Origin: Victivallis vadensis
GTDB taxonomy: Bacteria > Verrucomicrobiota > Lentisphaeria > Victivallales > Victivallaceae
Direction: 5' to 3'
DNA length: 64,000 nucleotides
Assembly: GCA_040394635.1 (NCBI GenBank)
Contig: JBEBRW010000010.1
Span: forward strand, 39,340-103,339
Shown: positions 4,409-49,434 of the stretch, one piece after another
How the letters are laid out: each line of letters begins with the position of its first letter
Position numbering within the stretch: the first letter of the stretch is position 1
The notes under the pieces: model-generated
The model's database searches: none
What the model saw: the letters and a program-made list of their open reading frames with translations, nothing else
Told to the model about the DNA's origin: nothing
Translations under genes and position numbers: made by a program

Positions 4409-5456
4409 CGGGGGCTCCCCAGCTGTAGAATGCGCTCACGGCTTCACCGGCCCAACTGGTGGAGCCGTCCGGATTGATGGTGACGGGACGAACCTCGATT
4501 GTGCCCGTAGTGGTATCGGCATCGCCCACAGTCACCGCGGGAACGCCGCCTGAACCGCCGGCAGCGGCCACTGCGCCGGGCTTCCAGGCTTGGGTAGCCG
4601 CCTCATAAACCAACGCCTGCCCATCGGATGCGTCGGACAAGCCGGACACGTCGGACAAGTCAGCCAGAGAGCTTGCACCGGCAGGGCCCCGGTCCCCTTT
4701 GTCGCCTTTGGGGCCGGGTTCTCCCGTATCGCCTTTTTCGCCCTGATCGCCTTTGGGGCCGGGTGCTCCGGTATCGCCTTTTTCCCCGGCCGGGCCGCCG
4801 GCTATCTTCAAGGGATCGGACCAGAGGCCGCCGATTTCACGGTTGCGAAGGCGGTACCAGCGGGCATTTTCGACACTCGCGGACCAATCGCCCGGCTCGG
4901 ACTCATTCGAAGAATATTGCAGCTCGAGACCGGCCTGCCAGAGCGATTCCACCCACGTGCGGTCCGCCCAATGCGCGGCCACCTCTTTCGGCTCCGTGCC
5001 GGAAACCGGGTCGATCGGCATAATTGCCTTGATGGGAAATTTACAATAATAAACCGCTTTGCCGCTGGTCTCCATGCCCCACAACTCAAACCAGGCGCCA
5101 ATGGATTCCCGCCCGTTGAGAGCAGCCAGGAAGTTAACCGTGTTGGCATTGATGACAAGCCCGACTTCGCCTTGTGCCAGGCCGGACGTATCGATATTTT
5201 CGCTCAATATCCGGCACATGGGTTCAGTGGTACAGTCATGGTCGCAATCGATCGCGGCCCGCCAGCTCGGCACTTCCGTCAGGTCAAGCGGCTTAAGCTG
5301 ACCGGACTCGGACGAACACAGCTGAATGGTCCATTCGGGCGAAGTGGCGAAGGCAATTTCCGGCTTCGTCAAACTACTCCCGCCAACGTTTCCCGGCTCC
5401 GAGTCACTGACGCGCCTGCGCAGGGTATTTGTGCTAACATTGTACTGATACAGCAT
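4401..5456 (-). CDS. Tail-fibre-like protein with a collagen-like G-X-Y segment
   Basis: A 351-aa ORF with 13 uninterrupted G-X-Y triplets (GPAGEKGDTGAPGPKGDQGEKGDTGEPGPKGDKGDRGPAG). It sits at the distal end of a tail gene string. Confidence 0.8.
   Translation of the reverse strand: MLYQYNVSTNTLRRRVSDSEPGNVGGSSLTKPEIAFATSPEWTIQLCSSESGQLKPLDLTEVPSWRAAIDCDHDCTTEPMCRILSENIDTSGLAQGEVGLVINANTVNFLAALNGRESIGAWFELWGMETSGKAVYYCKFPIKAIMPIDPVSGTEPKEVAAHWADRTWVESLWQAGLELQYSSNESEPGDWSASVENARWYRLRNREIGGLWSDPLKIAGGPAGEKGDTGAPGPKGDQGEKGDTGEPGPKGDKGDRGPAGASSLADLSDVSGLSDASDGQALVYEAATQAWKPGAVAAAGGSGGVPAVTVGDADTTTGTIEVRPVTINPDGSTSWAGEAVSAFYSWGAPDE
4677..4796 (-). repeat. Collagen-like G-X-Y triplet repeat (coding)
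   Basis: aa 221-260 of the 351-aa ORF. It contains the internal duplicate GEKGDTG(A/E)PGPKGD. Confidence 0.85.
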
Positions 5457-15633: not shown

Positions 15634-15669
15634 AGTCGGACCCGTCGGACCTGTCGGACGAGTCCGACT
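15634..15669. repeat. 9-nt-period array: 3 x GTCGGAC then 1 x GTCCGAC (member of the intergenic element family)
   Basis: The units are agtcggacc cgtcggacc tgtcggacg agtccgact. The junction GTCGGAC-GA-GTCCGAC is a perfect palindrome. The array lies between convergent gene ends. Confidence 0.85.
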
Positions 15670-32766: not shown

Positions 32767-32881
32767 TGCAATTCCTCATGGACTGATTGTCTGGTATTAC
32801 TATATCAATCCAGCTGAAAAATGCAAGATTTCGATTGTCAATCAATTGTCAAAAGTAATTTTCACCGGGACTGCCGCGCCG

Positions 32882-32917
32882 GGTCCGACCCGTCCGACAT
32901 GTCCAACATGTCCGAGT
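32882..32917. repeat. 9-nt-period GTCCGAC-type array (half element)
   Basis: The units are ggtccgacc cgtccgaca tgtccaaca tgtccgagt, in a divergent intergenic region. Confidence 0.8.
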
Positions 32918-43240: not shown

Positions 43241-43933
43241 TCATTTGCCAAATGCTTTTGCAATCAAAGCAACCGATATCACAACCGGAGCAAGCGCAAT
43301 GGTCACTCCGGCGCCCGCAATAAAGACGGGCACATCCACCGCAAAACCCACGACCATCAAAGGCGCAAGAAGCCAGCTGGATGCGGATTTTTCGCTCCTG
43401 ACGTATATTGCGCCATGAAGAGACTCTCCACAGCACATTGACTGGACCAGCGGATGAGAGAATCTTCTTTTTGGCGTTACTCGTTTCGCATCGGATAAAT
43501 CAATCGGCTCGGTACAAACGCGACCATAAAAATTGGCCCATGCCAGTTGGATTTTCTTCCATTTTTCATCGAATGCATATTCCTCGGACTCCAAAGGCTC
43601 CTCTGATTCTTCGCTCAATACATACTCCACGGAGTCCGGAGCCAGGACAACCAGCACATACCGCCCGGAATACCCCTGTTCTGTTATTTTATTGCGCGGA
43701 TGCATAGCCACGGCGTACCAATCAGGAGAATCGGTATAAGCAACTTCTGCGGCGTAGACATAATAAGTATCCTCTACCCGATATAAGACATTATCTTTGA
43801 TATAAGCGCCATCGGCATAATACTTAACATTGCCAATCGAGTAGGCACATTCTCCGAACCGGGTGAAAAAGCATCCCGGGGTCAGAAGCAGCGTGATTAT
43901 GCAGAAGCATGAAAGTAGCGAATTTTTAATCAT
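43241..43933 (-). CDS. Lipoprotein with C-terminal hydrophobic segments
   Basis: Lipobox LLLTPGC. C-terminal TM-like segment LLAPLMVVGFAVDVPVFIAGAGVTIALAPVVISVALI. Confidence 0.65.
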   Translation of the reverse strand: MIKNSLLSCFCIITLLLTPGCFFTRFGECAYSIGNVKYYADGAYIKDNVLYRVEDTYYVYAAEVAYTDSPDWYAVAMHPRNKITEQGYSGRYVLVVLAPDSVEYVLSEESEEPLESEEYAFDEKWKKIQLAWANFYGRVCTEPIDLSDAKRVTPKRRFSHPLVQSMCCGESLHGAIYVRSEKSASSWLLAPLMVVGFAVDVPVFIAGAGVTIALAPVVISVALIAKAFGK

Positions 43934-44038: not shown

Positions 44039-44153
44039 TTTTGATAGGACGAATGGGACGTACAGGACATATAGGAGACGACTGGCAAGCTCAAAAACTT
44101 GTTCGTGTTGCCTGACTCGTCCGACTTGTCCGACCTGTCCGACTTGTCCGGGT
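44039..44153 (+). repeat. Full intergenic element: GGAC-periodic left arm plus 41-nt spacer plus four GTCCGAC 9-mers
   Basis: The left arm tttgataggacgaatgggacgtacaggacatatagga is near-identical to 49244..49280. The right arm is cgtccgact tgtccgacc tgtccgact tgtccgggt. Confidence 0.85.
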
Positions 44154-49190: not shown

Positions 49191-49230
49191 AATATCTGAT
49201 CCTTACATTAGTTGAAAAATCCGGGTCGCT

Positions 49231-49338
49231 CCCGCCAAAAAGTTTTGATAGGACGAATGGGACGAATAGGACATATAGGAAAGTCCAAAGTTTTGTCCGA
49301 CTTGTCCGACCCGTCCGACTTGTCCGAGTTTTGGCGGG
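49231..49338 (+). repeat. Full intergenic element with an outer 10-bp stem (CCCGCCAAAA / TTTTGGCGGG), a GGAC-periodic arm and a GTCCGAC-periodic arm
   Basis: The left arm is tttgataggacgaatgggacgaataggacatatagga (49244..49280). The right arm is tgtccgact tgtccgacc cgtccgact tgtccgagt (49294..49329). Confidence 0.85.
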
Positions 49339-49434
49339 GCGCTACCTGCTATAAAATACGCTGTTTGCAGGATTTTTCAACTTTCAATTTGCATTTATCC
49401 GCTTAGACCCTTAAATTTATCTTATGGAGAATTT

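Follow-up and report, generated by a model that had tools for sequence, protein, structure and literature searches.

The spacer between the argininosuccinate-lyase gene (argH, minus strand) and the gene for a HEAT/GH2_N protein (plus strand) of Victivallis vadensis contains a 108-base intergenic sequence (positions 49231–49338 of the 64,000-nucleotide stretch of DNA analysed here, referred to as the window) in which two short-period tandem arrays face each other between divergent genes. Is this sequence a regulatory element of its locus or a copy of a repeat, and, if the latter, of what kind of repeat? A first-pass annotation of the same DNA, whose letters agree with those found on inspection of the sequence, had left the choice among a REP/MITE-like repeat, a structured small RNA and an array of protein binding sites. 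Two further points were missed by it: many array families obey one polarity grammar, and arrays frame, or sit inside, genes of the S23p/IVP family.

Architecture of the 49231 element and its copies in the window

The whole gained segment spans 49222–49345 (no strand assigned), as defined by the alignment of the genome of the window (G000) to contig C17 of its closest relative (G004), where the segment is missing from the orthologous site. Inside this segment lies an imperfect outer pairing (GGTCGCT.../...GCGCTACC, with fold pairs 49225–49343), followed by a perfect 10-bp outer stem that is seen both in the sequence and in the predicted fold. The 5′ half of the stem, CCCGCCAAAA, occupies 49231–49240 and the 3′ half, TTTTGGCGGG, occupies 49329–49338, both on the plus strand. 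The stem encloses a purine-rich left arm with a 9-nt period (49243–49280, plus strand, TTTTGATAGGACGAATGGGACGAATAGGACATATAGGA), which is made up of TTTTG followed by ATAGGACGA, ATGGGACGA, ATAGGACAT and ATAGGA and displays GGAC every 9 nt along its length. A 12-nt spacer, AAGTCCAAAGTT (49281–49292, plus strand), leads to the pyrimidine-rich right arm (49293–49328, plus strand), which reads TTGTCCGAC, TTGTCCGAC, CCGTCCGAC and TTGTCCGAG, that is, three TT-GTCCGAC units and then GTCCGAG. The outer stem had been described correctly in the first-pass annotation and is private to this copy, as no other copy has one. A metagenome scan with the right flank of the site returned no match.

Arrays of three to four NNGTCCGAC units occupy five sites in the window, two of which have a near-identical ATAGGAC-type left arm in common. 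In the second of these left modules (44039–44096, plus strand), the arm (44039–44076) differs from that of the 49231 copy at 2 of 37 positions and is separated by ten variable bases from the tail AAGCTCAAAA (44087–44096), of which the spacer of the 49231 copy is a degenerate form. A 33-nt spacer separates its arm from a right arm composed of GCCTGAC, three GTCCGAC units and GTCCGGG (44110–44152, plus strand). A solitary right-arm-type array (two GTCCGAC units, GTCCAAC and GTCCGAG; 32881–32916, plus strand) and an array located between convergent genes (GTCGGAC and three GTCCGAC units on the minus strand; 15635–15668) both lack a left arm. The fifth array, which is degenerate, lies inside a collagen-like ORF on the minus strand (4623–4665), where it is translated as ..LSDVSGLSDASD... 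The two-unit pattern GTCCGACNNGTCCGAC with up to two mismatches has 25 matches in the window against 0.59 expected, a number reached by none of 100 shuffled sequences. The four array loci and the shared left arm reported in the first-pass annotation are thus confirmed, although the fifth array had escaped it. Its statement that three of the four loci lie in divergent promoter regions holds for two of them (32882 and 49294), would extend to 44118 only if the ORF at 43241–43933 is real, and fails for 15634, which lies between convergent ORFs.

The long in-register hairpin that had also been proposed for these copies stands in part. In the predicted fold of the 49231 copy the arms pair in register with an energy of −49.4 kcal/mol (z = −4.5), and the opposite strand is predicted to fold too. 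This strong score owes much to the outer stem that is absent from every other copy. The arms of the 44039 copy pair in register, yet no better than those of shuffled sequences (z = −0.70). Genome-wide, in-register pairing is predicted for four of six ATAGGAC–GTCCGAC composites and the other two are out of register, with most energies being unremarkable. As modelled, the pairing of these two arm types is real but weak. The free bases of opposite arms match in 57%, 60% and 26% of cases, compared with 40%, 51% and 27% for permuted arms, which shows that strict complementarity is neither maintained nor inherited. This near-permuted level rules out that the arms are recent inverted duplications or are constrained by pairing.

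A superfamily of opposed arrays and its turnover

The genome of the window is a 5.4-Mb assembly of 106 contigs that is about 90% complete. It contains NNGTCCGAC arrays of at least three units at 40 loci, of which about 30 are intergenic and approximately nine lie inside ORFs, where they are translated as Ser-Asp-X. The family is therefore real and not a chance motif, and the dispersed intergenic repeat suspected in the first-pass annotation is borne out. It is also one of many. Tandem Repeats Finder (TRF) reports about 2,500 arrays in the genome, 817 of them intergenic (counted at periods 7–11), and periods 7, 9 and 10 dominate the intergenic ones. These intergenic short-period arrays fall into at least 12 unit families, with recurrent cores that include CACGGAA, ATAGGAC, ATGGAC, GTCGGAC, CACAAAA, GAATTGG, GAGAATT, GTTAAGA, GAATTAA, AAAATTG, AAAATGG and GAATTAC. 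By our crude gene calls, on which all context statistics rest and which leave about 15% of the genome intergenic, an array is present in roughly one in ten intergenic spacers, and the arrays overall are distributed in proportion to spacer length with no divergent, tandem or convergent bias. Taken by themselves, GTCCGAC arrays show some enrichment in divergent spacers (12–13 of 27 versus about 6 expected, by the same crude calls).

The arrays are mostly paired, with a complementary-type array located 0–200 nt after the first one. In the 49231 element, both arms are built from three to four phased 9-nt units, in which two to three free bases accompany a conserved core. Every family examined for order displays a single one (CACGGAA...TTCCGTG 17:0, TAGGAC 8:0, CACAAAA 12:0), and the purine-rich strand is found in the left arm of all 34 inverted array pairs in the unbiased TRF list, which spans over a dozen families. 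At least 12 unit families thus form a superfamily with one polarity, in which a purine-rich array is 5′ and its pyrimidine-rich complement is 3′. In the case at hand, these are the Shine–Dalgarno (SD)-like ATAGGAC arm and the GTCCGAC-type arm, respectively. This purine-rich-arm-first rule is a constraint that any mechanism must explain.

Within this grammar the parts are exchanged freely. The ATAGGAC left arm belongs to a 62-nt module, in which a T run precedes four units and ten variable bases separate these from the tail AAGCTCAAAA. The module occurs at nine or more loci in the genome without a fixed orientation or distance to genes. Its right partners are of five kinds, namely GTCCGAC, GTCCTAT, TTCCGTG, GTCCCAT and AATTCTC arrays. 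The arms are chimeric in that different families combine freely, the spacers are unrelated between copies, and pairs can be nested, as in CACGGAA[CACAAAA..TTTTGTG]TTCCGTG and CACGGAA[GTCCGAC ×4]TTCCGTG. Some A/T-rich heptad pairs flank GC-rich terminator-like stems at gene ends.

The first-pass annotation held that a simple terminator role would not suffice, and intrinsic termination can now be ruled out. Palindromic array elements are found in divergent spacers as often as expected (12 of 54 versus 12), the T run of the ATAGGAC family precedes the arms and the A run follows them, which places both on the wrong sides, and neither a consensus site nor any terminator-like site was found at the divergent 49231 locus. 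Taken together, these observations show that the arrays are not terminators as a class.

A comparison with the closest relative, G004, which belongs to the same genus and whose flanking sequences are 92–100% identical to those of the genome of the window, reveals how rapidly the elements change. At the 49231 site of G004, about 24 unrelated AT-rich bases replace 49222–49345 between flanks that are 93% identical. The element is also absent from the orthologous site of G002 and G001, and the same spacer in G003 contains a different opposed-array element (GAATTGGT ×3 ... CCAATTCT CCAATT). The 44039 site of G004 carries four ATGGAC and five GTCCAT units between identical flanking bases, and synteny between the two genomes is broken just upstream of the 32881 array. 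Across 13 loci compared between these two genomes, three elements are kept, five are swapped for another array family, and five are absent or located at a synteny break. Even in the three kept elements, either the unit numbers differ, or a heptad family has been replaced, or the central spacer is unrelated; the outermost units persist and the arms have changed mainly at their inner ends. Neither target duplication nor defined termini were seen at pairs of filled and empty sites in this comparison. Copies have thus been gained, lost or swapped at the same intergenic sites within about 5–7% sequence divergence.

Such turnover between near-identical flanks means that the 49231 copy has no conserved locus-specific role as a small RNA, operator or attenuator. 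It is recently gained, fast-turnover repeat DNA and not a conserved regulator. For annotation, this is a caution against reading such elements as small RNAs, operators or terminators locus by locus. The distribution on a larger scale is equally patchy. Of 40 relatives, G003 and G004 are rich in GTCCGAC and CACGGAA arrays, as is the genome of the window, a few other genera are positive, and the same-genus genomes G001 and G002 have zero to one match for either motif. A reversed control, CAGCCTG-NN, has no match in 41 genomes.

Arrays around and inside S23p/IVP genes

The family PF05635 of S23p/IVP four-helix-bundle proteins is represented in the genome of the window by seven loci: four canonical genes (125–137 amino acids, TIGR02436) and three longer ones. 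All four canonical genes are framed by opposed heptad arrays: on the coding strand, the purine-rich one precedes the gene and its complement follows it. These are GTTGACA and TGTCAAC for C28:4109-4420, GAATTAC and GTAATTC for C94:98-412, GAATTAA and TTAATTC for C8:13797-14096, and GAGAGAA and TCTCTTC for C87:2452-2757. By comparison, 1.2% of the called genes overall have arrays within 120 nt on both sides. In the longer genes (184–195 amino acids), TIGR02436 is joined by the TIGR04258 suffix domain, and the nonamer families of the 49231 element (GTCGGAC/GTCCGAC or ATAGGAC arrays) are found at their start or in the linker. C28:83-671 has (GTCGGACAA)×7 just upstream and (GTCCGACNN)×5 in-frame in its linker, where the array is read as SDWSDVSDMSDPSD; four ATAGGAC units adjoin the ATG of the gene on C43; and the linker of the gene on C14 contains a CACGGAC..GTCCGTG mini-palindrome that breaks the frame. 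The same arm types as those of the intergenic elements thus frame every canonical S23p/IVP gene (PF05635, TIGR02436) and adjoin or enter the longer TIGR04258 genes.

Relatives provide further cases: a GTCYGAC array in the linker of an IVP-like gene (G022), GTCCAT and GTCCTTT arrays after the stop codon of an IVP gene (directly after it in G004; and G003, respectively), and ACGGAC arrays before an IVP-gene ATG (G016). Within the genus, the array-rich genomes G000, G003 and G004 have six, six and five PF05635 genes, respectively, versus none in G001 and none in G002. G020 has a few arrays but no PF05635 match, and 18 IVP-positive relatives are without the two array families counted (GTCCGAC and CACGGAA).

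The link extends beyond the phylum. An exact scan for four GTCCGAC units, with one genome per species, yielded at least 119 loci, and 846 kb of their sequence was searched with profiles. Among the matches listed, the loci from Actinomycetota and similar groups are coding, and the remaining ones are spread over Lentisphaerota, Verrucomicrobiota, Planctomycetota, Bacteroidota, Myxococcota, Acidobacteriota and others. Of the 119 loci listed, seven match a profile of the long IVP-like proteins (E = 1e-59 to 1e-88; three from Lentisphaerota, three from Verrucomicrobiota and one from Alloprevotella rava), against a chance expectation of less than one such gene in the 846 kb (about 0.5 per Mb, a rough estimate from the genome of the window). 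In all seven, a GTCCGAC array is located either inside the gene, where it forms SD-X repeats in the linker or at the C-terminus, or no more than about 160 nt away. GTCNGAC arrays therefore touch IVP-like genes in three phyla, and this link offers the best available account of why the nonamer core recurs in distant phyla, unlike the reversed control.

Other genomes provide two further observations. Array pairs at these loci comprise six in the purine-to-pyrimidine order versus two in the opposite order, with only eight pairs available, and long homogeneous arrays are present in other phyla. Prevotella ihumii contains about 160 copies of an element with terminal inverted repeats (TIRs), the short variants of which have GTCNGAC arrays as their whole interior. 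The nonamers can thus be passengers of other palindromic elements, in which they invariably take the central position.

Origin of the element and its place among known systems

Considering (i) the opposed, phased arms of the 49231 copy, (ii) its purine-first polarity and (iii) the framing of IVP genes by the same arm types, we lean, by a modest degree, towards regarding it as a gene-less copy of an array-armed hairpin repeat of the IVP-cassette type, as known from 23S rRNA intervening sequences. No four-helix-bundle ORF (PF05635/TIGR02436) is found between its arms, where the spacer measures only 12 nt, and the copy is thus at most a gene-less derivative of such a cassette. Most likely, it is a miniature, empty version of the cassettes in which repeats frame a small four-helix-bundle gene. 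Gene-less copies would then relate to IVP cassettes as miniatures to their gene-carrying parent, or would arise by the same process, and the universal polarity would derive from the coding strand of the cassette, on which the purine-rich 5′ arm is upstream of the start codon and could double as the SD region. Where the arms are transcribed, they may form an imperfect double-stranded stem that would be cut by RNase III (its gene, rnc, is present in the genome), by analogy with the 23S rRNA intervening sequences. At its own site the 49231 copy probably serves no conserved function, apart from incidental effects on the argH/HEAT-protein promoter region. As it shares no sequence with any IVP gene, its descent from a cassette is deduced from arm types and layout, and it could be instead that the surroundings of IVP genes are preferred by invading arrays, or tolerate them, which would make the link an association without parentage.

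Both the inner-end turnover of retained elements and the central position of arrays within other palindromes suggest that the relevant events take place at the palindrome centre. A bolder proposition, which we consider rather doubtful, is that the short and long S23p/IVP proteins are working parts of a cross-phylum mobile system, with the opposed 7–9-nt arrays as its signature and the gene-less copies as its footprints. In such a system, the arms may be laid down or renewed at the palindrome centre by templated 3′-end synthesis, possibly by a host reverse transcriptase. S23p/IVP four-helix-bundle proteins are relatives of the Avd cofactor of diversity-generating retroelements. The proposition would explain the polarity, the chimeric and nested arms, the inner-end turnover, the lack of target duplications and the recurrence of GTCNGAC from Lentisphaerota to Bacteroidota. 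Two retron-type reverse transcriptases are present in the genome, and their distribution does not track that of the arrays.

Among the rival explanations, the likeliest is that the arrays are plain long-unit simple sequence repeats generated in place by replication slippage, the IVP link being incidental. Slippage would be favoured because the GTC-N-GAC-NN unit is doubly palindromic and folds back on itself, and in the GTCNGAC nonamer the variable positions, three in number, coincide with the dyad centres. The differing unit numbers at loci retained between G000 and G004 and the long homogeneous arrays in other phyla fit this explanation, and an excess of heptamers put down to slippage is discussed in PMC4692102. 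However, the reversed control, which is equally palindromic, is absent from all 41 genomes, and the non-palindromic CACGGAA and ATAGGAC families behave alike. Furthermore, arms are repeated as entire blocks whose ends are fixed and whose bases are position-specific, as in the 62-nt left module and the terminal GTCCGAG-TTTT, and slippage predicts neither a universal polarity nor a strong cross-phylum link to one gene family. We therefore consider it rather unlikely as the origin of the element.

It is less likely still that the element is a MITE moved in trans by an ordinary transposase, for which the phased units would serve as binding sites. The element resembles MITEs, including the P. ihumii TIR element with its array-filled variants, in being small, non-coding and, by virtue of the outer stem of the 49231 copy, bounded by an inverted repeat, and its presence differs between close relatives. 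But the outer stem is private to that copy, the arms are chimeric, the spacers are unrelated between copies, and no target duplication was seen, so that a family-wide TIR and a conserved interior, which MITEs have, are both missing from the window element. Neither is there a partner transposase: no array-flanked transposase gene was found, and long-range array pairs enclose only ordinary genes, membrane proteins among them. A search for the RAYT/Y1 transposase (PF01797), which the first-pass annotation had recommended, gave no match in G000 (about 90% complete), nor in the array-rich G004 and G016, and no GxxExxY nuclease (PF13366, PDDEXK_3) was found either. The same result separates the element from REP/BIME–RAYT systems. 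It is akin to REP/BIME elements (REPINs) as a short, dispersed, strain-variable intergenic imperfect palindrome, but it has no GTAG-type head and its arms are tandem arrays. The REP/MITE-like label is thus apt in its broad sense, and in no narrower one.

No better are the prospects of the arrays being cooperative binding sites for a sequence-specific protein that acts on the neighbouring promoters, an explanation to which we assign an equally slim chance. The conserved core with variable spacer bases and the enrichment of GTCCGAC arrays in divergent spacers would suit such sites, although the conservation figures carry a bias from the search that yielded the arrays. Ribbon-helix-helix proteins bind contiguous 7–8-bp repeats with an orientation rule. 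A precedent is also available in Geobacter (PMC2700814). On the other hand, relatives whose flanks are nearly identical do not share the sites, a dozen families would need a dozen proteins, the superfamily overall is proportional to intergenic length, and arrays occur in coding linkers as well. A structured small RNA, or an RNA sponge for a CsrA-type protein that would bind the GGA motifs of the GGA-rich left arm, is extremely improbable in spite of the hairpin predicted to be stable on both strands of the 49231 copy: no CsrA gene (PF02599) was found in the genome, Rfam has no match anywhere on the window or on a separate 200-nt repeat, other copies fold no better than shuffled sequences, the left module keeps no consistent orientation or distance to genes, and elements are absent or replaced at orthologous sites with 93–100% identical flanks, that of the 49231 copy in the closest relative among them.

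A literature search on the motif and on Victivallis repeats produced nothing relevant, but comparable arrays are on record elsewhere. The cyanobacterial STRR heptamer repeats, reportedly described by Mazel in 1990, are the same kind of intergenic long-unit tandem repeat. The present family shares with the long-unit repeats of the STRR, Xanthomonas and Geobacter type its tandem 7–9-nt units, its mostly intergenic location, its many copies and its often convergent pairs. In Xanthomonas, GGGAATC arrays form 70–75 pairs per genome that are always in convergent orientation, their function being unexplained (Rehm 2015, PMC4692102). These arrays and ours are intergenic long-unit tandem repeats that obey the same polarity rule and vary in length between relatives. 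They differ in that two species of Xanthomonas retain 83% of the arrays in place (PMC4692102), compared with 3 of 13 here, and in that the arrays described here comprise many mixing families, have 9-nt units and display no G-quadruplex potential. Geobacter metallireducens contains three classes of three to five tandem 7–9-nt repeats, mainly as opposite-strand pairs at variable distance and in dozens of copies (Aklujkar 2009, PMC2700814), for which the label ‘putative global regulator binding sites’ is a guess made in annotation. One of its units, that of class 2 (TCTCCGTS[Y]; PMC2700814), is similar to the TTCCGTG family of V. vadensis, although the phylum and the units are different and a link to IVP genes is not noted in PMC2700814.

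The closest parallel is provided by the S23p-type 23S rRNA intervening sequences of Coxiella burnetii, Leptospira and Xanthomonas, in which complementary ends with tandem short units form a stem (PMC4990558). The Coxiella intervening sequence is a stem-loop that holds the S23p ORF and whose stem is cut by RNase III (PMC4990558), and an SD-like stretch with two to three tandem, purine-rich GACAGAT heptamers, the number of which is strain-variable, precedes the ATG (PMC4990558). The 49231 copy differs from these sequences in being gene-less, in its location between protein genes, in its nonamer units and in having arms from two families, and processing by RNase III would be expected here by analogy only. 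It nevertheless displays two hallmarks of an IVP-type cassette, the opposed pairing arrays and the purine-5′ polarity, and lacks the ORF between the arms, and genes of the same Pfam family do sit inside array pairs in its genome, with the purine-rich units 5′. Paired short-tandem arrays in cyanobacteria, Geobacter and Xanthomonas have gone without explanation for decades, and the S23p protein likewise has no assigned function. The genome of V. vadensis ties paired arrays to S23p-family genes, and across phyla the long form of these genes is accompanied by one nonamer core. The S23p/IVP link is thus a concrete candidate for what makes or moves paired repeats.

Sites flanking and resembling the element

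Directly after the 108-base array-armed hairpin at 49231-49338 of the window lies a stretch, TATAAAATA-CGCTGTTTGCAGGATTTTTCAACTTTCAATTTGCATTTATCC (49347-49420), that is conserved in three same-genus relatives, G004, G003 and G002, and is probably the promoter/leader of the plus-strand HEAT-protein gene to its right. For this putative promoter, the element stands in place of what would be the −35 region in G004. Elsewhere in the window, a collagen-like gene contains an in-frame array of the GTCCGAC type (4623-4665).

Arrays at gene ends and other repeat families

Throughout the Victivallis genome that holds the window (G000; C-numbers denote its contigs), heptad arrays of GTTAAGA and GAATTAA start at the preceding gene's stop codon or overlap it, supplying TAA in all frames (for example C24:8460-8528, C27:23342-23420, C86:3790-3857 and C9:55500-55592). 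Such an array is followed directly by a GTCCGAC array in four operon spacers, where the latter ends 16-30 nt upstream of the next start codon.

Outside the window, the same genome carries a further repeat of ~200 nt, distinct from the array families, that includes CGCCACCGGGTGCTACCCGGACGCGGTCCAGCGCGCGGACAGCGCTGGTCGCC .. GGGCGAAA .. GTAAGCCGCAGGCGCTA .. GAGGTTGAAAAA. BLAST returned 48 matches in G000, frequently as inverted pairs, and nearly all copies are preceded by a heptad array of changing family (C22:318-417, C12:84132-84515, C64:22428-22806 and C5:94768-95137 are examples); a comparison with Rfam gave no match for this repeat. In Prevotella ihumii (G041), a MITE-like family of ~160 copies with the terminal repeat AACCCAAATCGGTCGTTAGAC (loci L159-L188, L043, L057 and L113) has interiors of 196-197 bp of two mutually unrelated kinds, deletion forms of 58-64 bp, and 89/116-bp forms whose interior consists of GTCNGAC nonamers throughout.

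Reverse transcriptases and long IVP-like proteins

Two solitary retron-type reverse transcriptase genes are found in G000 outside the window, at C67:15626-16606 and C50:34718-35746. PADLOC matched them best to its RT_XIII/X and RT_III-A models; the C67 gene has counterparts of equal size in G004 and in another array-rich relative, G016.

One of the long IVP-like genes of G000 (C14:57461-57926 and downstream) is split by a frameshift that coincides exactly with a CACGGAC..GTCCGTG mini-palindrome in the linker, and its suffix domain runs on in a different frame. In Verrucomicrobiota MAGs (loci L042, L107 and L122), the C-terminal end of the long IVP-like proteins consists of SD-X repeats and, after these, a CxxC...CxxC zinc-ribbon, an arrangement that hints at nucleic-acid binding. 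This zinc-ribbon, CPxCGxxMxxRTAxxGxxxGxxFWGCxxYPxCKG, is similar to a topoisomerase-type finger.
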